Below are positions 13,013-20,954 of a stretch of DNA of 64,000 bases, piece by piece; within the stretch, counting starts at the first letter, position 1, and each line of letters opens with the position of its first letter. Both the position numbers and the translations under genes were made by a program. Origin of the DNA: Verrucomicrobiota bacterium (GTDB taxonomy: Bacteria; Verrucomicrobiota; Verrucomicrobiia; Limisphaerales; Palsa-1400). The stretch is from NCBI GenBank assembly GCA_049510745.1, contig JBEKYR010000005.1:96001-160000 (forward strand), written 5' to 3'. The notes beneath the pieces are model-generated. The model was not told the DNA's origin. It searched no databases and saw only the letters and a program-made list of their open reading frames with translations.

Positions 13013-13240
13013 TCAAGACTTGCGGCAGCGCGAGGCCAACGCCTTCACGACAGGAACAAGTCGGCAGTCTTCCAACGGGCGGTAATGCAGTGGCCTGCGG
13101 CGGGCGCGTTTGAGCCAAGCCACATCCTCGGCGTCCTCCACGCGCTCCAAGAGTTCTTCATAATTCTTGATGGGGATGATGACCGAGACGGGTTTGCCGT
13201 TGCGCGTCACGATTTCAGGTTCTGGCATTGTCGCCTTCAT
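13013..13240 (-). CDS. Phd/YefM-like antitoxin (orphan, possibly with run-on C-terminus)
   Basis: EIVTRNGKPVSVIIPIKNYEELLERVEDAED is a typical Phd-like signature. Confidence 0.75.
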   Translation of the reverse strand: MKATMPEPEIVTRNGKPVSVIIPIKNYEELLERVEDAEDVAWLKRARRRPLHYRPLEDCRLVPVVKALASRCRKS

Positions 13241-13264
13241 AGTCGTGGATTACCGTCTCCACGT

Positions 13265-13453
13265 TCAGGCACGCGGAGTGTTCTCCTCCTCATCCAGCGC
13301 GCGGAAAGATGCCGCCGCCAGAGCCGCGAAATCGTCATCCGTCAAATCATCAGACATGGGAGCACGTTCGACGATGGCGCGTCGAAGCTGTTGACGCTCC
13401 TTTTCCGAAAGCTGCTCGAACTCGCCAAGAATTTGAGTGACTGCTTGTGTCAT
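13265..13453 (-). CDS. Small acidic hypothetical protein, antitoxin-like (62 aa)
   Basis: MTQAVTQILGEFEQLSEKERQQL...LTDDDFAALAAASFRALDEEE; size, acidity and position next to a Phd gene. Confidence 0.55.
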   Translation of the reverse strand: MTQAVTQILGEFEQLSEKERQQLRRAIVERAPMSDDLTDDDFAALAAASFRALDEEENTPRA

Positions 13454-13542: not shown

Positions 13543-14172
13543 ATGACTAAGGAAGGGATTATCATTGCCGCTTTCACGACAATGGCCATGTTCTCTTTAC
13601 AACGGTTGGAAGCTCAGGGGACATTAACGATGGCGACTGATCCGACATTCGGGCCAAACTCACTAATTGTTGACACGGCAACAGGTCTGAACTGGCTAAA
13701 CCTAAAATACACAGATGGCTTGAGTTATGACCAGGTCATTGGGGAGATGGCGCCGGGAGAGCTCTTCGCGGGATTTACGTATGCTAGCTCTGCCCAGGTG
13801 ACTACACTTTTTGCGGATGGTACGCCAGGGAACGCAAATTATTCGCCCACGAGTCCTGCAATTGCGACATTCATTGATTTGGTTGGAAGCACCGGAGAGC
13901 AGAACGGATACCCTTACTCCATGGGTGAAGTGCTAAACGGACCACCTGGTATTATTGGTGGCGAGCTTATCATACCGACGTGGGGCCTTTTTGTTGCAGG
14001 TTACAACGGCGTCTTTTCTTATGGTGTGCAGGGGTCCAGGCAAGGAGAGTGGTACGGGGGCGGTTTCGGAAGCTGGCTTGTGGAAGCTGTACCGGAGCCC
14101 AAGACATGGTGCTTGTGTTTGCTTGCCGCACCATTTGTAATCAGCGCGGTTCGGAAAAGAAGCAGAATATGA
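13543..14172 (+). CDS. PEP-CTERM sorting-domain secreted protein
   Basis: Signal peptide; C-terminal VPEP + hydrophobic stretch + RKRSR; lower GC than host genes. Confidence 0.85.
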   Translation: MTKEGIIIAAFTTMAMFSLQRLEAQGTLTMATDPTFGPNSLIVDTATGLNWLNLKYTDGLSYDQVIGEMAPGELFAGFTYASSAQVTTLFADGTPGNANYSPTSPAIATFIDLVGSTGEQNGYPYSMGEVLNGPPGIIGGELIIPTWGLFVAGYNGVFSYGVQGSRQGEWYGGGFGSWLVEAVPEPKTWCLCLLAAPFVISAVRKRSRI

Positions 14173-14385
14173 TACTGTTTGGGATTTTTTAGCGGATTTC
14201 TGAGGATTCGTGAGGAGCGCGCGATTTCGGAAGCGCCCTAACGATAACGCCTTGCAACGTGTGAGGATTGGTGAGTAAATAGTATTGTCACTTTCGAGTC
14301 AGTCAGCCTTATGCCAGTTGCGCTGATATGATACATGAATATAACTAATGCGTTAATTTTTCGCTTGCTTTGTTCGCTCTGTTCG

Positions 14386-14424
14386 TAATGCGGGGAATGG
14401 CGGGAGTGGCGGGGCTCGAACCCG
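14386..14424. repeat. att direct repeat (duplicated 3' end of tRNA-Asp), 39 bp
   Basis: TAATGCGGGGAATGGCGGGAGTGGCGGGGCTCGAACCCG is identical to 19307-19345. Confidence 0.97.
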
Positions 14425-14607
14425 CTACGAATCATTGCAAATCAAGGACTTAGGTGGGCTGCCATCACAAGGAGCCTCACAAATCTCTGGCGTGTTGGGG
14501 CAGGACCTGTCACGCGTAGTCACTGCATGGGCTGATCTTCCTCCGCCTCTCAAGGCTGCAATCCTCGCCATTATCGAGGCCGCCGGGAAATAGGAAAGCG
14601 GCTACCT

Positions 14608-15546
14608 GTGGACACGCAAGCCAGTGGGGGCACGGAAGGGCCGGGGGCGGAGCGGCGCGAAGCGCCGCCCGCACCCGGCCTTCCTTGTCTAAATAGTAAC
14701 AATTCAGACAACGCGGAAGCGAGTCCGTGGAATCTCCTGACGGGTTCGCATCGCAAGGTGGCCTTCTGTCTGCAAGGAGAAATTCTCGCTTTGGTTGAGG
14801 ACTTCGGTATTGAGCATCTTGGATTTTTAACCCTCACTTTTGCTGATCATGTCGTTGACATCAGGGAAGCGTCTCGGCGGTTTAACAATCTCAACCGGCG
14901 CGTATTGAAGGCCCGTTACAAGCGCCTGGTGGCGGTGCCAGAGCGGACGAAGATTCAGAGGCTGCATTTCCACTGCCTGTGCGTGTTAGACGTTGATATC
15001 CGCACTGGCTGCGATTTTGAGGCTTTCAAGAAAGGGGATTACCGGTCGGCATCGGCGGTTCTTAAGTCCGAGTGGAAGTTTTGGCGCGAGACTGCGCCCA
15101 AGTATGGCTTCGGTCGGACTGAGTTGCTGCCGGTTAAGTCAACCGCCGAGGGCATCTCGAAATACGTTGGGAAATACATCGCCAAGCACATCGACTGCCG
15201 GGTCGAAAAGGACAAAGGCGCGAGGTTGGTTCGCTACATCGGTTATCGCCCTGGGGAGCGGTCGTTCCACCCACACATGATGTTCAATTCGGAGCATGCC
15301 TGGCTGTGGCGGCAGAAGGTAGAAAAGTTCACCCGCCAAAATCGCATTTTTGACATGGAGCATTTCACGAAGATTTGCGGGCCTCGTTGGTGCTACTTTT
15401 TTCAAGACGCGATTCTTCACACGGATTTGCCTCCTGGCACGGTGTTTCCGTCGTTGGCTCTGGGGTTGGACGAGTCGGAGCGCAAGAGCGCCAGGGAGTG
15501 TTTGCTTTTGAAAGTTCGTCTTTGCAAAGACATCGACAAGCTGTGA
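14608..15546 (+). CDS. HUH-family rolling-circle replication initiator
   Basis: Motif I FLTLTF, motif II LHFHCL, motif III KYVGKYIAK in the canonical order; start codon (GTG) uncertain. Confidence 0.85.
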   Translation: MDTQASGGTEGPGAERREAPPAPGLPCLNSNNSDNAEASPWNLLTGSHRKVAFCLQGEILALVEDFGIEHLGFLTLTFADHVVDIREASRRFNNLNRRVLKARYKRLVAVPERTKIQRLHFHCLCVLDVDIRTGCDFEAFKKGDYRSASAVLKSEWKFWRETAPKYGFGRTELLPVKSTAEGISKYVGKYIAKHIDCRVEKDKGARLVRYIGYRPGERSFHPHMMFNSEHAWLWRQKVEKFTRQNRIFDMEHFTKICGPRWCYFFQDAILHTDLPPGTVFPSLALGLDESERKSARECLLLKVRLCKDIDKL

Positions 15547-15748
15547 GTCCGCACTGTCAATTACACCGTGTAACCTCGGAACTGCGCGGAGCGTAACCAA
15601 CACAACCAAACAGGACCACCCTTGCCACCCTGGGCAATAGGGAGAACCTGGCATTGGAAAAAACCATCCTGGGCAAGGGGCATCTCAATGCGATTTGTCT
15701 TGCTAGGGCCATCAAAAAGCGCAATGGTGGCCGAAATTTAAAACACGC

Positions 15749-16594
15749 ATGACAATCGTTGTTGGACTAATAGGCAAGGAATCAATCGTTTTAGCGAGTG
15801 ACAGCCAGTCAACCTATGGAGTGGCAAAGTTACTGAACGCAAGAAAAATAGGCGTCGTCGCATTTGAAAATGGAACGGCACTTGTTGCACAAGCTGGCGC
15901 GGCGTATCCGGCGTCTCGCGCAGTGCAACTTTTTGAACGGAAGGCAAAAAGCCTTCGCGTTACTGATTCCGAATCGTTTATTAAGGCCGCTCGTGACTCT
16001 GTATTAGAAGTGAAACATTGCCTAATTGAAGGACAAGGGGGAGCAGCGTTTTCAGAAGATAGACGGGAGCAATTTTTTAGATGTGACTACTACTTTAAAT
16101 TGATGGTCGCTTACTATCTTAACGACCAGCCTTTCATTTTCACGATTGATAGTTATGACTGTCTGCCGGTCCATCTGAAATCGGATTATGTGGCAATGGG
16201 ATGCGGTGACACTTTAGCGTATTACCTTTTAAGCGAGATTGTGGAACTAGGGATGCCATTTACGAACTGCATGGCGCGTGCAATCTACGTTGTGGAAAAG
16301 GTCAAACAAAACGTTGAGGGATGCGGGGGATCGACATGCGTTGGAGTTGTTCATAACGTCCCTGATTCGGATGATGATTATACCGCGAAAGTCCGCCGTT
16401 CAAAAGGATTGACATTACCGTATAGCAGTGCTCGTGTTCTTGATCAAAATAGAATCAGCGATATTGCAAGGAGACTTACAGACGTTGATTTTAAATGCAG
16501 GAAAGATAGAAACAAGCAAATTATAGCGATGATTCAAGGTGTGGAGGCTGATTATCAGAACGAATGGGACGAATCGCCGGAGGAAGTACAATGA
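15749..16594 (+). CDS. Proteasome-beta/Ntn-hydrolase-like protein without propeptide
   Basis: M-T1IVVGL..IVLASD17SQST..RK32I..AQAG..YVAMGCG..GCGG follows the Thr1/Asp17/Lys33/Gly47/GSG/SGG pattern; strongly AT-rich. Confidence 0.75.
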   Translation: MTIVVGLIGKESIVLASDSQSTYGVAKLLNARKIGVVAFENGTALVAQAGAAYPASRAVQLFERKAKSLRVTDSESFIKAARDSVLEVKHCLIEGQGGAAFSEDRREQFFRCDYYFKLMVAYYLNDQPFIFTIDSYDCLPVHLKSDYVAMGCGDTLAYYLLSEIVELGMPFTNCMARAIYVVEKVKQNVEGCGGSTCVGVVHNVPDSDDDYTAKVRRSKGLTLPYSSARVLDQNRISDIARRLTDVDFKCRKDRNKQIIAMIQGVEADYQNEWDESPEEVQ

Positions 16595-16713
16595 GTAAGC
16601 CAGGTATCCAAGTCGGTTTTTACTGGCGATAACCAGGATTTGTTTCTTGAAGACACTGTTCCTGTTTTGAGGACTGCGTGCGGCTTAGTGCAGTATCACA
16701 TGTGGCAGCAAAT

Positions 16714-17154
16714 TTACTTGAGGTTTTGCCACCGGACCAATATTCCATCGCTGAAATAGAGGAAAATGTCCGGTTCGGCAGTTTCGAGAGTGACAGGGTC
16801 GGGATCTAAATATGACCATAAATCAAATGAACCGCCAATTCCTTGACTTGTTTCAATATGCCACGGGCGGCCCATGACCACGCGGACTTGCTCTTCGTCC
16901 ATACCGATTGAAATCCGTCCGTTCTTGAAGTTGTCCAGCAATCTGGGGTCGGCATTTGGATGTGCTTCCATGTATGCTCGCGCTCTCTCGGAAATTGCAG
17001 ACGGGAGACGTTGGTCGAGTTCGTCGAGCGTAAATTGCGCTGCGGATTTATAGTGCTCTGTGGCCGTGTCGGCAGGGGGTTGTCCATATTGAGGGGGGAT
17101 GGGAGACCCACATCCCGCGATTGCGACAAGAATGACTGACAGAACGATTCTCAT
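16714..17154 (-). CDS. Predicted lipoprotein with SmpA/BamE-like small domain
   Basis: Lipobox IAGC; IGMDEEQVRVVMGRP...WSY...LYFSDGILVRWQ. Confidence 0.65.
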   Translation of the reverse strand: MRIVLSVILVAIAGCGSPIPPQYGQPPADTATEHYKSAAQFTLDELDQRLPSAISERARAYMEAHPNADPRLLDNFKNGRISIGMDEEQVRVVMGRPWHIETSQGIGGSFDLWSYLDPDPVTLETAEPDIFLYFSDGILVRWQNLK

Positions 17155-17478
17155 TGTTTGGATAGTATCACGCCCGATAGCTGTCCGTCAATAATGTGAG
17201 AATGCGCCTGGTGGTGACGGCATTGGCCGCAGTGTTGCGGTGGCAGAAAGGGCGCAATCCTGGGGACAAGGACGACACGACCAGGCACTTGTCGGGGCGG
17301 AGCGTTCGCGTGTTGGCATTTGGCTTGGCCTTTGTGTTCGCAGCAAGCCGGATGCCAACACGGGAACGCGCAGCGGGGAAATGCTCATGGTTTCTAATGT
17401 GATAATGATTGCAATTAGAATTACTAAAAACGTTTTTATTTGATTGCTATGTTCGTTTTGTTCGTTTAGTTTGATGCC

Positions 17479-17877
17479 ATGAAAAGAAAACGAACAGGCG
17501 CGAAAGTGATAGCCGGGAAGGCAACGCAAAAGGCCCCCGTGCGAGCGGAACAAAAATCAGAGAACCAATGGCCGCCCGGGCATCTCACAGAATCCTCGGA
17601 TGGGGTGCTGAGAATCCGTCCGTTTCCAGAGAGCCTTCTGCACGAAGCCGAACGAGAGCCTGATCATGTGGACTTGGCGGAATACTGGCGGGTGATTTTT
17701 AAGCTGCGCGAAAAGGGCTTCACGTTTCGTGATATTGCACTGTGGCTTTCGGAGCGCAACGTTGAGGCGGACCACAACGCCGTTTATCGGGTGTACTCCA
17801 ATCATATGACCGCCGAGCAGACTGCAATAGAATCGGACCTGGAAGAACGGGAAAAGCAAATGATCGAGGAGTTGTGA
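17479..17877 (+). CDS. Hypothetical protein with probable HTH
   Basis: LREKGFTFRDIALWLSERNVEADHNAVYR resembles an HTH; first gene of the run leading to int. Confidence 0.6.
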   Translation: MKRKRTGAKVIAGKATQKAPVRAEQKSENQWPPGHLTESSDGVLRIRPFPESLLHEAEREPDHVDLAEYWRVIFKLREKGFTFRDIALWLSERNVEADHNAVYRVYSNHMTAEQTAIESDLEEREKQMIEEL

Positions 17878-17878
17878 T

Positions 17879-18100
17879 ATGTCTGACGTTGTCGAAAGGG
17901 CGAGCGAGGGCAATGCGGAATCGAAACTGGTGCGGCTGAAAGGGGCGGCGGCTCGGCTTGGTGTCAGTGTGCGGACATTGTACCGCATCATTGCGGAAGG
18001 GGGCTTGCCCTTGGTGCATATTCGAGGGTGTTCGTGTTTGAAAGAAGGCGACTTGAGCGCTTACGTGGAAAAAAGCAAACGAAGGAAAATTTATGATTAA
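17879..18100 (+). CDS. Excisionase/AlpA-like HTH protein
   Basis: LVRLKGAAARLGVSVRTLYRII.EG.LP.V.IRG; 73 aa, overlaps the integrase start. Confidence 0.88.
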   Translation: MSDVVERASEGNAESKLVRLKGAAARLGVSVRTLYRIIAEGGLPLVHIRGCSCLKEGDLSAYVEKSKRRKIYD

Positions 18101-19376
18101 CAGCATTTACAAACCCAAGGGGTCGCGGATATGGCGCTGGAGATTCCGGCAGGTCCCTGCCGATGGCAAAATTGAAGATGTATCGCTTGGGACATCTGAG
18201 AAACAGGTGGCGGAAAAACGGCAGGGTGAGCGGCGGCGAGAAAAGGAGCTTGAAAGAGGGGGGTTCATTCCTCCAAAGGCTATACGTGATGCGTCACACC
18301 GCAAGCTGTCGGACCATTTGCAAGACTTCCTGGGCGATATGCGCCGGCGGGGGAAGTCGGAAAAGTATCTGGCAAACCTTGAATTCCGTGTTGGCAGACT
18401 GATTTCGGATTGCGCTTGGAACACAGCAAGCGACGTTTCGGCTGATTCATTCCAAGCCTGGTTGCGTAGGCGACAGGAATTGAAGGACAAGACGGCGAAT
18501 GATTATTTAGAAGCTGCGCGGTGTTTTTTTAACTGGCTGGTGAAACTCGGTCGGGCGGGGTCTAATCCTCTGCTGTCGGTGGAAAAGGCAAAAACGAAAG
18601 GCGGCAAAGCACAGGGGCGCCGGGCGTTTAGTGATGACGAAATGGTGCGTTTGCTGGCTGTTGCTGGCGAGCGCAAGGCGGTTTACCTGATGGCGGTCCA
18701 TACGGGCTTGCGGAGAGGGGAATTGGCGGCGCTCAAGTGGGGAGACTTGCATCTGGATGCGGTGACACCGTTTGTCAACGTCCGGGCATCGACAACTAAG
18801 AACGGCAAGGCTGCGGATATGCGATTGCTTCCTGAATTGGTGGCAGCACTGGCTGAACTTAAAACCAACGGGACAAATGGCGATGACCTTGTTTTCAAGC
18901 GGATTCCCCGGATTGAGAGGTTTTACAGGGACTTGAAAAAAGCCGGGATTGCGCTCAAGGACGCATTTGGACGCAAGGCCGTCTTTCATTCCCTGCGGCA
19001 TACATTCGGGACTAATCTGGCGCGGGGTGGAGTGGCAAGCCGGGTTGCAATGGCTCTGATGCGGCACAGTGACCGAAGATTGACGGATCAGATTTACACT
19101 GATGAAAACCTGCTCGGCACCTGGGCGGCGTTCGACAGTCTGCCCAATTATGGGGAGCGAGCCTCACAAATAGCCTCACAGATTTTAGTCGCAACGGGTC
19201 AAAACGTGTCATTGCCTGTCACAACGAGTGCCGGGCCGGAAGTGGCAAAAACCCTTGTAAACATTGGCGATTGTCACGTTTTGGCACTGCCTGGCACAAC
19301 GGGTCATAATGCGGGGAATGGCGGGAGTGGCGGGGCTCGAACCCGTAACCTCTGCCGTGACAGGGCAGCGCTCTAA
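18093..19376 (+). CDS. Tyrosine recombinase/integrase
   Basis: TGLRRGEL (R), TKNGK (K), FHSLRH (HxxR), MRHSD (H), QIYTD (Y); the ORF reads through att into the tRNA antisense. Confidence 0.96.
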   Translation: MINSIYKPKGSRIWRWRFRQVPADGKIEDVSLGTSEKQVAEKRQGERRREKELERGGFIPPKAIRDASHRKLSDHLQDFLGDMRRRGKSEKYLANLEFRVGRLISDCAWNTASDVSADSFQAWLRRRQELKDKTANDYLEAARCFFNWLVKLGRAGSNPLLSVEKAKTKGGKAQGRRAFSDDEMVRLLAVAGERKAVYLMAVHTGLRRGELAALKWGDLHLDAVTPFVNVRASTTKNGKAADMRLLPELVAALAELKTNGTNGDDLVFKRIPRIERFYRDLKKAGIALKDAFGRKAVFHSLRHTFGTNLARGGVASRVAMALMRHSDRRLTDQIYTDENLLGTWAAFDSLPNYGERASQIASQILVATGQNVSLPVTTSAGPEVAKTLVNIGDCHVLALPGTTGHNAGNGGSGGARTRNLCRDRAAL

Positions 19377-19395
19377 CCAATTGAGCTACACCCCC
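19319..19395 (-). tRNA. tRNA-Asp (GTC)
   Basis: GGGGGTGTAGCTCAATTGGTTAGAGCGCTGCCCTGTCACGGCAGAGGTTACGGGTTCGAGCCCCGCCACTCCCGCCA folds as a 77-nt cloverleaf with anticodon GTC and encoded CCA. Confidence 0.97.
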
Positions 19396-19484
19396 GCTCA
19401 GGAACCCAAAACCTAACCAATCCTTCGCCCCCAGTCAATGGCGAACCCGCGGTTCGCTGATTCGTCCTTCGTCATTTCCCCCGG

Positions 19485-20954
19485 TCAATCAACGCTTGCC
19501 CTCCTGTGGCGGCGACGCCTGCCCAAACCTGGGATTCCCCCTGGCTGCGGGAGGACCGACTCCGCCCGCGCGAAGTGGAGCACATTGCTCACCTCGGGCT
19601 GGACGCCGGTGAAAACGATTTCCAGCCCCTGTTGCAGGCCGCTCTCCCTGGCCCGCAGCATCAGCCAGGCGCCGGCGCTGTCAATGAATTTCAGGGCGGA
19701 GAGGTCAATCAAAAAACGGCTGCCGGCCTTGGCCCGCGCCGCGATCTGGCTTTGCGTCGAACGCCACACCTGCTCCACGTTGGCCGCGGTGATTTCCCCC
19801 TGCCAGAAGACCGAGGGGCGCCACGGAAAATAATTGGGCCGCGCCAGGACCGGCCGCGCGGGGGCGGGATTCTCCATCAGTTCGGCCGCCGCCGCCATGT
19901 CCGCCGCCACGGTGAAGAGGCCCTCCAGGCGCATCCACCGCAGCGCGGCGCGCGCCGCTGGGCTGGGCGAGAGGAGGATCACTTTGCGATGGGACAACCG
20001 CGCCCGCTGCCGCAAAGCCAGCAGCAGCCCGGCGCCAGTGCTGTCAATATAAACCACGTTCGACAGGTCCAGCAGGCAATAACGCCCGTCCGCCAGGGCT
20101 GCTTCGCACGACGCCCGGTCGCGCCGCGCCGCCGCGCCGTCCAGCCGCGCGGGCATCCTGATCCGCTGCCAATTATTGCGGGGCCGGAGCGCCGCCTGCG
20201 TAACCGCGCCGGCGGGCGCGTGGACTTGTCGAAGCTGTATCCGCCACCATTGCTGGGCGATGGCCAGGGCGAAGACGGCCAGGTTCCGCGCCGCGCGGCC
20301 CCAGTGGCGCCCAGGCTCGCCCCGGACGCGGCCCCTCACCGCCTCCATCGCCGCGCCGACGCCCACCGCGATCGGCACACCGAGCGAACGATAGTGCATT
20401 GCGATCCACTTTTCCTCTTTGGGACAGCCAAAGGAGACGAACAACAGGTCGGGGCCGGCCTGCTTGATTCGCCGGCAAATGTCTTCGTGGTCCATTTCCA
20501 GCAAAGGCGCGCCGGGCGGCGCGTACGAGCCGGCGACGATCAAATCCGGATGCCGGGCGCGCAGTTTCGCGCAGGCGTCGGCGGTGGATTCGGGCGTGCC
20601 GCCCAGGAAAAAGACGCGGTATTTCCTGCGCGCCGCGACCTGGAGCAGCAACGGAACAAGGTCAGCCCCTGCGACGGGCCTGGGCAGGGGATTGCCCAGC
20701 AGGCGCGAGGCCCAAACCAACGGCCGCTCATCGGCCAGCACCAGATGCGCGTCGGTCAAGATGCGGTGCAATTCGATGTCGGAGAGCGCCTGCACCAAAA
20801 AGCCGACGTTGGCGGCGACCAAATGATGCGGTTGGCGGGAGGCGACCATTTGCTCGATCAACTCGACGGTTTGGGCGGCGGTGACGTTGTCGAACGGCAC
20901 GCCCAGGAGCACGATAGGCTGGGCGGCGGCATCGGGTTGGGGAACGGTGCTCAT
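19485..20954 (-). CDS. WecB/TagA/CpsF glycosyltransferase-like domain fused to two STAS domains
   Basis: LLGVPFDNVT, VAGADL, FFLGG, PDLLFVSFGCPK.EKW; two 'DLS....IDS.G' STAS motifs. Confidence 0.88.
   Translation of the reverse strand: MSTVPQPDAAAQPIVLLGVPFDNVTAAQTVELIEQMVASRQPHHLVAANVGFLVQALSDIELHRILTDAHLVLADERPLVWASRLLGNPLPRPVAGADLVPLLLQVAARRKYRVFFLGGTPESTADACAKLRARHPDLIVAGSYAPPGAPLLEMDHEDICRRIKQAGPDLLFVSFGCPKEEKWIAMHYRSLGVPIAVGVGAAMEAVRGRVRGEPGRHWGRAARNLAVFALAIAQQWWRIQLRQVHAPAGAVTQAALRPRNNWQRIRMPARLDGAAARRDRASCEAALADGRYCLLDLSNVVYIDSTGAGLLLALRQRARLSHRKVILLSPSPAARAALRWMRLEGLFTVAADMAAAAELMENPAPARPVLARPNYFPWRPSVFWQGEITAANVEQVWRSTQSQIAARAKAGSRFLIDLSALKFIDSAGAWLMLRARESGLQQGLEIVFTGVQPEVSNVLHFARAESVLPQPGGIPGLGRRRRHRRASVD

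Follow-up and report, generated by a model that had tools for sequence, protein, structure and literature searches.

A conserved integrase tail, predicted to be severed by integration, in a family of small Verrucomicrobiota elements

The myxophage Mx8 has its attP located within int, and integration is described as giving the gene a new 3' end without removing the catalytic residues (PMC6070905, PMC4383910). In the Mx8 annotation, the excisionase-like gene uoi overlaps the start of int from upstream, and the Int translation contains a tRNA-antisense-like stretch (ARSTGLEPV) about 60 residues past the catalytic region, followed by about 110 more residues. Mx8 reportedly targets tRNA-Asp, and IntX, the prophage form of the enzyme called Int or IntP in the phage, is said to be the less active one. 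The 'suicidal' integrases of the SSV1, pTN3 and pT26-2 type also carry attP in the open reading frame, and their gene is partitioned by integration as these are described in PMC8371274 and PMC7253208; according to the review PMC8371274, recombinases of the gene-disrupting kind are known from archaea alone. In the mycobacteriophages BPs and Brujita, attP is described as located in the 3' end of a gene, from whose product integration removes a C-terminal segment and thereby alters the protein (PMC4557955). The same logic of attP in a gene, with C-terminal loss, is reported for the corynephage CyranoPS (preprint 10.64898/2026.10.29.762952). For the pleolipovirus SNJ2, an excision-dependent operon is described in which int and replication genes from the other end become joined, with a new ORF across attP (PMC13107129).

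The locus described here was found in a 64-kb stretch of DNA, hereafter the window, in which ARAGORN called a single tRNA, an intact tRNA-Asp(GTC) at 19319–19395 on the minus strand. A scripted search found a 39-bp direct repeat with exact copies at 14386–14424 and 19307–19345, neither flank extending the match; a repeat search gave this pair a length of 42 nt at 98% and a spacing of 4,921 bp. The repeat consists of the final 27 nt of tRNA-Asp plus 12 nt past its end. Its left copy is a displaced tRNA-Asp 3' fragment with these 12 nt, and its right copy lies within int and overlaps the tRNA 3' end. Positions 14386–19345 are accordingly annotated as a putative integrative element of 4.9 kb on the chromosome of a member of the Verrucomicrobiota, located at the 3' end of tRNA-Asp(GTC), its integration target, which it would have entered by site-specific recombination catalyzed by a tyrosine recombinase.

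Besides int and a gene for an excisionase-like protein, the element carries rep, of the rolling-circle type, and a small number of cargo genes. The rep gene (14608–15546, forward strand) matches Pfam PF23343 (REP_ORF2-G2P; E 9.1e-09, 36 bits, cut-off 27.8). It is followed by a cargo gene (15749–16594, forward) with a proteasome-subunit-like N-terminal region (PF00227, E 1.4e-06, residues 3–73 only) and by a small ORF from the ORF list (16714–17154, reverse) with a lipoprotein-like N-terminus and a weak BamE match under the cut-off. The ORF list further contains orf132 (17479–17877, forward, 132 aa), the first gene of a putative orf132-xis-int operon, for which the Pfam scan gave no match; in L037 and L098, homologues of it precede int. 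The excisionase-like HTH gene (17879–18100, forward; HTH_17, E 5.4e-06, 27.0 bits, at the cut-off) overlaps the int start by 8 nt, an arrangement that parallels uoi in Mx8, and its homologues lie immediately upstream of int in L007, L018, L031, L032, L034 and L086. The first-pass annotation of this DNA had described a tiny non-tailed element; in agreement with this, no virion gene was recognised by the Pfam scan among the six element ORFs and the tail ORF.

The gene int (18093–19376, forward) encodes 427 amino acids, crosses the right-hand core copy and, on the antisense strand of the tRNA, ends in ...NLCRDRAAL. Residues 181–339 match Pfam Phage_integrase, the catalytic domain extending to about residue 339. 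Six columns were invariant in an alignment of 34 sequences (R207, K236, H299, R302, H325 and Y335), and both forms of the protein retain the catalytic residues since all six lie upstream of the core, which begins at about codon 405. When int, cut at 19345, was joined in silico to the sequence that begins at 14425, the frame stayed open for a further 55 codons, with a stop at 14591–14593 and a product of 473 amino acids. The earlier claims that int reads through the att core, that it yields 427 or 473 residues and that both forms keep their catalytic residues were thus upheld, coordinates and lengths being reproduced exactly by the scripted join. Because the complete attP lies within the int ORF, between catalytic domain and tail, the free circle is predicted to encode the 473-aa Int, and because the recombination site is inside the element's own integrase gene, the tail would be lost from Int on insertion. 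Integration as reconstructed leaves a 427-aa Int with all catalytic residues and, past the core, 10 tRNA-antisense codons at its end. The tail coding sequence (DLSRVVTAWADLPPPLKAAILAIIEAAGK, 14504–14593, forward) is thereby separated from int and stranded 4.9 kb off, at the element's opposite end, where rep follows it immediately, beginning 14 nt 3' of the tail stop.

Circularisation in silico and comparison with homologues, suggested earlier as a check, showed that the frame across att is conserved in related elements: int, core and tail form one ORF in 7 of the 10 loci that hold both tail and int, the remaining three being one pseudogene and two loci without a clear outcome. The seven are the window element, L007, L011, L031 and L033 at tRNA-Asp, L065 at tRNA-Ser(GCT) and L080 at tRNA-Val(CAC), and the frame from int to tail is hence retained through three different tRNA cores. 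In the 60 non-duplicate left ends with a recognised core, the stretch from there to the tail motif contains no stop, and only two have an in-frame ATG within it; judged from the sequence, the tail is not a separate gene. Most tail loci were found by the tail peptide itself; in the less biased set found through int (the window element, L007, L011 and L018), the tail was in frame with the core in four of four. Nei-Gojobori sums over 10 pairs from five Asp-type elements gave a pN/pS of 0.21 for the 23-residue tail motif (pS 0.66, pN 0.14) and of 0.19 for 90 catalytic codons, and by these measures the tail is under purifying selection, like the catalytic domain. Codon-position entropies in the tail of 0.42, 0.25 and 1.13 at positions 1, 2 and 3, and pN/pS values of 0.13–0.26 across four core-type groups, with the same contrast to the linker as in the Asp-type set, are in line with this, although such amino acid conservation is partly ascertained because most loci were recovered through the tail peptide. 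An AF2 model of the contiguous homologue P0023 placed helices at 446–454 and 459–479 with a pLDDT of about 88, after an attP-encoded linker (369–443) with values below 50; its N-terminal domain consists of three strands and a helix. Together with the conserved frame and the low pN/pS, the modelled helices support the initial description of the tail as a genuine helical protein segment.

The DNA between catalytic domain and tail evolves differently. The complete attP within the int ORF is composed of the core, a P arm of about 150 bp and a P' arm of about 80 bp with repeated TCACAA-type motifs. The P side (19150–19306, forward) contains the repeats GCCTCACAAATAGCCTCACAG (19161–19181), CCTGTCACAACGAG (19215–19228), TTGTCACG (19271–19278) and CCTGGCACAACGGG (19290–19303). 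Its 53-codon linker has a pN/pS of 0.98 and a pS of only 0.24, as against 0.61–0.66 in the flanking coding parts, and its motifs are kept at all codon positions in 13–16 homologous loci; phased GTCAC-type repeats are also found in elements with other tRNA cores. The P' side (14425–14503, forward) is a 26-codon linker in the int frame with the repeat CCATCACAAGGAGCCTCACAAAT at 14462–14484. Among the 60 left ends, the distance from core to tail motif is constant at 22–27 codons, with 34 in one core type, and the pN/pS of this linker is 0.6–0.92 in four core-type groups, which argues against protein-level constraint on it. Both arms thus appear to evolve as constrained DNA without codon bias, and the stretch from catalytic domain to core behaves as attP arm DNA that is apparently translated by happenstance. 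The location of the arms within the reading frame had been missed in the first-pass annotation.

We consider it likely that the conserved tail, severed by integration at attP inside int, modulates Int and joins the rep operon on the circle. Only the circle, whether excised or incoming, would give rise to the tail, which, by analogy with Mx8, would most likely modulate Int so as to favour attP x attB recombination, the integrative reaction. Int of the prophage may then be a weaker, Xis-dependent enzyme, a direction taken from Int versus IntX of Mx8 by analogy only. Circularisation would re-form an orf132-xis-int(tail)-rep operon in which ribosomes ending at the tail stop could re-initiate on the next gene, and replication functions would therefore be expressed only after excision.

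The coupling to the downstream gene, absent from the earlier annotation, is visible across the family. In 20 of 47 distinct loci, the tail stop and the start codon of the following ORF overlap (ATGA in eight, GTGA in 11, TTGA in one), mostly with a GGAGG-like motif upstream, and the ORF after the tail matches the Rep family PF23343 at E <= 0.001 in 18 of the 47, 10 of them above the curated cut-off. Since the tail stop often overlaps the next start, commonly that of a Rep, excision would also restore an int-tail-rep operon. The tail frame continues into Rep in L134 (513 aa) and P0335, and part of the constraint on the tail could serve the downstream gene because its 3' end holds the ribosome-binding site of that gene and some frames enter Rep. 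The overlaps, the SD-like motifs within the last tail codons, the Rep-like neighbours and these fusions would also be expected if the tail were not functionally Int and either carried ribosomes over attP to the rep start or acted as a Rep leader or partner. We regard this as unlikely: coupling alone would not demand 23 residues conserved at such a low pN/pS, and in P0338 (414 aa) and P0330 the tail directly follows the catalytic domain and is itself followed by a stop. Moreover, of the 47 ORFs that follow the tail, 27 match nothing in Pfam at E <= 0.001 and two more match non-Rep families, the next ORF of at least 120 aa starts 278–289 nt away in 13 of 47 loci, and the 60 left ends lack the conserved start codon of an independent tail-Rep protein.

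A switch of protein stability, with the integrated C-terminus ...RDRAAL as a degradation tag, had been suggested at the outset. Such ssrA-like tags act in the integration-dependent immunity of mycobacteriophages, and 427 aa is by far the commonest length among the listed homologues (67 of 120), those fetched sharing the identical end. A repressor truncated by integration is reported to have changed activity in CyranoPS (preprint 10.64898/2026.10.29.762952). The ...RDRAAL end is, however, set by the tRNA-Asp antisense strand and is not free to evolve; in relatives at tRNA-Ser and tRNA-Val, the integrated form ends in unrelated sequence of another length (a 446-aa form entering flanking DNA in L065, ...PATPTV in L080), with no tail common to the integrated forms, and family-wide conservation falls on the tail of the circle form. 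A degron is therefore improbable, and this part of the initial interpretation is unsupported in the form given; att within int, a longer Int predicted on excision, a real tail and the likeness to Mx8 stand. That the open frame is a by-product, the DNA past the left core being conserved as attP arm, promoter or origin, is already disfavoured and highly improbable, for although arms are expected beside the core and the adjoining linkers are conserved as DNA with low pS, the tail motif shows the opposite (high pS, low pN, most entropy at third positions), its frame survives three tRNA cores and all 60 left ends are free of stops up to it.

The severed tail that we favour as a modulator of Int is widespread. 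At least 431 tail-encoding stretches were found in JGI metagenomes, the tail profile matched 1,673 representative proteins at E <= 0.001, and of 401 genomes from the same order, 49 contain the tail. Eight core types were distinguished among 71 non-duplicate left ends, the family using at least eight different tRNA-derived cores in both orientations. In the 401 genomes, int and tail were contiguous in none of 74 tail matches and none of 59 integrase matches; the full-length int-core-tail form was seen solely in a few metagenome proteins, namely P0023 (480 aa, from a contig of 4,704 nt), P0101, P0346, P0306, P0325, P0341 and P0292. Contiguous proteins on long contigs, such as P0346 on 625 kb, could represent tandem-array junctions.

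With lambda Int, the protein shares the tyrosine recombinase fold (Foldseek aligned 345–376 columns to full-length lambda Int chains), and both systems have a complex attP in which repeated motifs flank the core. The distances from motif to core presumably resemble those of lambda arm-type sites. The lambda attP is outside int, whereas here it is translated. Among phage and PDB proteins, Brujita-type integrases matched this Int best, at about 29% identity in sequence and with a Foldseek E of 1.3e-11 for the P0023 model, whose top matches were Brujita Int and lambda Int. In BPs, Brujita and CyranoPS, however, the gene that is cut encodes the repressor and not the integrase, and the integrases are described in the CyranoPS preprint as armless, in contrast to the long arms and repeated motifs of the attP described here and to the N-terminal domain of three strands and a helix in the Int model. 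The SSV1-type integrases have attP inside the integrase ORF as well, but their split parts the N-terminal from the catalytic portion and inactivates the enzyme, whereas here the catalytic residues stay together; the Pfam scan of the element ORFs gave no match to PF16795. The likeness to SNJ2 is that int and a replication gene are collinear across att, here in the order int, tail, rep and with the tail stop overlapping or abutting the next start. SNJ2 is archaeal, however, and its attP-spanning ORF is separate and downstream of int, whereas here it is the C-terminus of Int itself; SNJ2 has one transcription unit, while the collinearity here is read from sequence alone.

Closest is Mx8, likewise with a tyrosine integrase whose coding sequence contains attP past the catalytic region, and the parallel drawn in the first-pass annotation is apt in that attP lies in int, which acquires a new 3' end on integration (PMC6070905). 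The arrangement appears to be of the Mx8 IntP/IntX kind without detectable sequence relatedness: BLASTP with Mx8 Int gave a best E of 0.11 and nothing beyond a generic N-terminal motif, with no similarity detected in the tail, and tblastn of the tail against 50,697 phage records gave no match. Mx8 differs in host phylum and is a 49.5-kb tailed phage as opposed to Rep elements of 4–8 kb; unlike in Mx8, the tail here is short (some 30 residues, forming conserved helix), family-wide over at least eight cores and coupled to rep. A layout known from a myxophage is, on this evidence, general across an extensive family of Verrucomicrobiota elements.

The tRNA-Asp(GTC) gene, located by ARAGORN at 19319-19395 on the minus strand, is the sole tRNA gene of the window. 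Its final 27 nt and the 12 nt downstream constitute an exact 39-bp direct repeat (14386-14424 and 19307-19345), which in a script and a repeat search was not extendable either way and showed a spacing of 4,921 bp. Islands inserted at the 3' end of a tRNA gene typically leave such a repeat, and by this signature the predicted element extends from 14386 to 19345. It has a G+C content of 52.0% vs. 61.0% and 59.7% in the flanks. The integrase ORF int (18093-19376, 427 aa) crosses the right copy of the core and stops 31 nt beyond it, in the interior of the tRNA gene on the antisense strand. When the end of the right core was joined in silico to the base after the left core, 55 further codons were open up to a stop at 14591-14593, yielding a protein of 473 aa in which the core occupies codons about 405-418. 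Integration exchanges 56 C-terminal residues of this predicted circle form (Int473) for a short segment of 10 host-derived ones in the integrated form (Int427). Recomputation of the tRNA, the repeat, the ORF and the 473-aa join returned all coordinates and lengths of the first-pass annotation.

A Pfam scan of the six element ORFs recognised neither virion genes nor a repressor-like gene. It identified an excisionase-type HTH gene overlapping the int start (17879-18100; HTH_17, E 5.4e-06), a replication protein gene, rep (14608-15546; REP_ORF2-G2P, E 9.1e-09), and a cargo gene (15749-16594; Proteasome, E 1.4e-06). The proteasome subunit family match of the cargo gene is confined to its N-terminal 70 residues (residues 3-73 only), and among the loci fetched its only tblastn homologue was L023, the window's own metagenome contig. 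The stretch 17104-17491 separates orf132 from a divergently oriented lipoprotein-like gene and contains an imperfect inverted repeat of 48 nt (arms at 17280-17327 and 17344-17391). Compared with the remaining element, its contig word depth is raised about 4- to 13-fold in four runs of peat metagenomes (226 vs. 27.7 in run X1), and hence part of it is a repeat that recurs in many of the genomes or elements sampled there. Two small neighbouring ORFs (75 and 62 aa) immediately to the left of the element lie on the minus strand at 13013-13453; judged from its translation, the first presumably resembles a Phd/YefM-type antitoxin.

The catalytic motif of tyrosine recombinases reads R-K-H-x-x-R-H/W-Y. 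Int affiliates with the Pfam family Phage_integrase (PF00589, residues 181-339, E 3.5e-20, 72.9 bits vs. a cut-off of 27.1), and R207, K236, H299, R302, H325 and Y335 are invariant columns in an alignment of 34 sequences, which characterizes the predicted protein as a tyrosine recombinase of the phage integrase type. The core begins only at about codon 405, after all six residues, and both forms of Int are therefore predicted to be catalytically complete, as the first-pass annotation had proposed. No Pfam arm-domain matched Int at E <= 0.01. The AF2 model of P0023, a contiguous int-core-tail homologue 79% identical to the Int of the window, comprises a small N-terminal sheet-plus-helix domain (strands 2-6, 15-19 and 28-31, helix 37-55), two recombinase domains at pLDDT above 90, a linker (369-443) at pLDDT below 50 and, at the end, two helices (446-454 and 459-479) at pLDDT about 88. 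The last of these features bears out the helical segment that had been suspected in the extra tail. Foldseek matches of the model were Brujita Int (E 1.3e-11), lambda Int (2.6e-10), XerA, Tn1549 Int and Cre. A complex prediction with Int 1-352 and tail 20-56 as alignments gave a score of 0.00 without controls, a value that says nothing either way on docking.

The integrase search, with 8,000 candidates scored, yielded 659 proteins at E <= 0.001; a search of viral contigs found no relative of int. Among the matches listed, 67 of 120 integrase homologues have a length of exactly 427 aa. The same tRNA-antisense end was present in all four fetched proteins with a complete integrated C-terminus (P0002, P0040, P0051 and P0115). 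After the core, P0023 (480 aa, on a contig of 4,704 nt) reads into ...DLPKVVTAWAKLPSPLKAAILAIV... instead of this end. Integrases with 62-85% identity are encoded at 17 genome loci in Verrucomicrobiota MAGs (Limisphaerales, Pedosphaera and others). Three of these loci (L007, L011 and L018) have a second, upstream core copy, and in all three the tail then lies in the int frame. The contig of L007 (DASRLE010000482.1) was binned as Candidatus Saccharimonadales and carries an element at tRNA-Asp with an integrase 85% identical to that of the window; it is probably a mis-binned Verrucomicrobiota contig.

The tail (14504-14593) is encoded in 49 genomes out of the 401 from the same order, among them 9 of the 12 that belong to the same family, with 74 matches in total. 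At least 431 stretches were obtained from JGI metagenomes, 80 of which were fetched, and at E <= 0.001 a tail profile matched 1,673 representative proteins. The best 150 of these 1,673 are 27-232 aa long, and nearly all of them carry the tail at their C-terminus or close to it. Phage records contained no tblastn match to the tail at E <= 10. In a protein atlas the tail occurred only in small proteins, commonest in Planctomycetota, which suggests look-alikes of the Rep-element family in this phylum as a lead.

The open frame 5' of the tail always reads through a tRNA-like fragment, and eight core types were recognised among 71 non-duplicate left ends. Where ARAGORN detected a full tRNA on the locus, the partner was tRNA-Asp(GTC) in antisense orientation (6 loci), tRNA-Ser(GCT) in antisense (L065 and L069) or in sense orientation (L041, L054 and L063, with 29-68 nt from the end of the intact tRNA to the tail match), or tRNA-Val(CAC) in antisense orientation (L080). 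Core and tail motif are 22-27 codons apart, and 34 in one core type. An independent small tail gene is unlikely since an in-frame ATG between core and tail motif was present in just 2 of 60 left ends. On in silico circularisation, a single int-core-tail ORF was formed at seven of the ten loci with both tail and int, in agreement with the earlier proposal that excision produces a longer Int with the tail kept in frame. Five of the seven loci affiliate with tRNA-Asp, one with tRNA-Ser and one with tRNA-Val, the integrases of the latter two being only about 40% identical to that of the window. At L018, one of the ten, int is frameshifted; L037 and L055 have no exact repeat of at least 12 nt between the element ends.

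Substitution patterns distinguish the parts of this ORF. Nei-Gojobori sums for five Asp-type elements (10 pairs) gave the last 90 catalytic codons a pN/pS of 0.19 (pS 0.61, pN 0.12), the 53 codons between catalytic domain and core 0.98 (pS 0.24, pN 0.23) and the 23-codon tail motif 0.21 (pS 0.66, pN 0.14). In four core-type groups, pN/pS was 0.60-0.92 for the P' linker, which lies between left core and tail (14425-14503), vs. 0.13-0.26 for the tail. The codon-position entropy of 63 distinct tails was 0.42, 0.25 and 1.13. Most tail loci were found via the tail peptide, so that the amino acid conservation is partly ascertained; synonymous divergence and the contrast to the linker are unaffected. 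Three regimes adjoin within one ORF: purifying selection on the enzyme, a pN/pS near 1 in the translated DNA of the recombination site, and conservation of the tail.

The P-arm linker (19150-19306), located between catalytic domain and core, combines low synonymous divergence with motifs that are conserved at every codon position across 13-16 homologous loci. It contains a tandem GCCTCACAA pair (19161-19181), CCTGTCACAACGAG (19215-19228), an AAACC-TTG-AAACATTG block and then GTCAC-type repeats up to the core; on the P' side, CCATCACAAGGAGCCTCACAAAT is located at 14462-14484. Phased GTCAC-type repeats immediately upstream of the core are also present in elements with other cores, and TCACAA/GTCAC motifs are repeated on both flanks of the core. 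From this arrangement we infer putative arm-type sites for Int and/or Xis. If the motifs are read as DNA sites, the SQIASQ/SQGASQ peptide repeat on both sides of the core is their shadow and not a protein motif. A sigma-70-like site (19281-19310) pointing across the core was rejected as a candidate: a similar match occurred in three of five Asp-type and in none of three other-core elements, and the site coincides in part with the GTCAC-type repeats.

Across the 401 genomes, no integrase ORF contained any of the 74 tail matches, and not one of the 59 integrase matches extended past residue 419 of the contiguous query of 472 aa; hence the stranded state is the norm in chromosomes. Long tail-holding frames in genomes (513, 373 and 295 aa) proved to contain no integrase, one being a tail-Rep read-through and two chance G+C-rich frames. 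Contiguous int-core-tail proteins were obtained from metagenomes (P0023, P0101, P0292, P0306, P0325, P0341 and P0346) and could represent circles or tandem junctions. In the proteins P0338 and P0330 and at the locus L075 (1450-1746), the tail directly follows the catalytic domain without a tRNA core, and the flanking repeat (TQIRAQI or DAQRDAQ) is present just once ahead of it. These coreless forms may either be ancestral and unsplit or have lost attP by deletion between the core-flanking arm repeats; L075 and P0330 look like pseudogene remnants. In a 513-aa frame at L134 (G076:C47) and in the proteins P0335 and P0175, the tail frame has no stop and continues into a Rep-like protein, which on a circle would predict an Int-tail-Rep fusion.

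Read mapping of the junction was limited by the assemblies: in the Logan contigs of 22 runs, the contigs of four runs covering 14000-19800 break inside the core (14395-14415 and 19316-19336), and the junction is not traceable. An apparent contig link from 14433 to 19162 was rejected as a junction because it has 29 other letters and derives from the left end of a related element. The depth in X1 is similar for the element (27.7 and 21.5) and the flanks (29.1 and 24.3) and is uninformative on excision.

Stranded tails also affect annotation. The ORFs of P0123 (656 aa, host glycoside-hydrolase-like) and P0300 (570 aa, a serine recombinase) read via a displaced tRNA core into a stranded tail, which is therefore annotated as their C-terminus. 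Such a false host-gene C-terminus is an annotation artefact, expected wherever these elements insert. One genome contains nine tail matches; at its locus L144 (G239:C26:10000-26000), the int of an element is followed after 140 nt by another core, which is degenerate, and by another tail, and a span of 16 kb yielded no tRNA-Asp. These are arrays of decaying elements.

In the window, rep starts 14 nt past the tail stop on the same strand as int. In 20 of 47 distinct related loci the start codon of the next ORF (at least 120 aa) overlaps the tail stop (ATGA eight times, GTGA eleven times and TTGA once), most of these starts being preceded by a GGAGG-like motif 6-12 nt upstream. The next ORF matched the Rep family at E <= 0.001 in 18 of the 47 loci, in 10 of them above the Pfam cut-off; 27 had no Pfam match, one matched Fic-like/HATPase_c_4 families and one was an integrase fragment. 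To judge from the gene layout, the genes are arranged as in a translationally coupled operon, one that would exist only when int and tail are joined.

The architecture resembles that of the Myxococcus phage Mx8, a case that has stood as a curiosity for 25 years. In both, the att core lies within int; in the window it is downstream of the catalytic Y335. In the Mx8 record, uoi overlaps int, and within the translated Int a stretch resembling tRNA antisense precedes a long C-terminal segment. The sequences themselves share only a weak N-terminal BLASTP match (best E 0.11). The integrated form of the phage enzyme, IntX, is said to be less active, a finding ascribed to Magrini in 1999. As stated in PMC6070905, integration modifies the Mx8 integrase and does not inactivate it. 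In contrast, integration into SSV-type integrase genes severs the N-terminal part from the catalytic domain and so inactivates the enzyme, according to a 2021 review that also confines gene-cutting integrases to archaea (PMC8371274); Int427 keeps the entire catalytic domain. Integration-dependent immunity, as described in PMC4557955 and in the preprint 10.64898/2026.10.29.762952, cuts a repressor gene, whereas att of the window lies in int. The gene layout of the window, with int and rep collinear across attP, recalls the operon that the archaeal virus SNJ2 builds by excision (PMC13107129). The island finder Islander tolerates an int overlapping att because of Mx8 and SSV (PMC4383910). No description of the Verrucomicrobiota family or of the tail motif was found in the open-access full-text literature searched. 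The family represents a variant of the Mx8 layout that is new, large and well delimited, and its translated putative attP arms and the coupling of tail and rep are features not noted before.

In the proposed switch, the circle would encode Int473 and the chromosome Int427. By analogy with Mx8, the tail would favour the integrative reaction or Int assembly; the prophage enzyme would then be weaker and excision dependent on the HTH_17 protein. The helical tail module, present on the circle only, would license integration or contact Rep or host factors, and rep would be expressed only after excision. A linker free of protein constraint would allow the tRNA core to be swapped without harm to the enzyme, which would explain the at least eight targets in both orientations at a constant core-to-tail distance of 22-27 codons. 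We consider it possible, if rather doubtful, that this family of small Verrucomicrobiota Rep elements senses its own integration state through an attP placed in a disordered linker, with full-length Int and coupled rep translation restricted to the circle. The interpretation in the first-pass annotation is right in structure and unproven in function. Its idea that the ...AAL end might act as a degron is unsupported as a family feature, since the integrated ends vary with the target.

The Mx8-like logic is the rule for a family carried by 49 genomes out of 401 from a single bacterial order. Its stranded tails make up over 1,600 representative clusters, and gene callers annotate them as small hypothetical proteins or as a spurious C-terminus of a host gene, as in P0123; island finders and annotators should let int cross att and join both halves. 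The system makes it possible to test how a recombinase can record the free vs. the integrated state in its own sequence, and whether replication is wired to the same integration-state switch.
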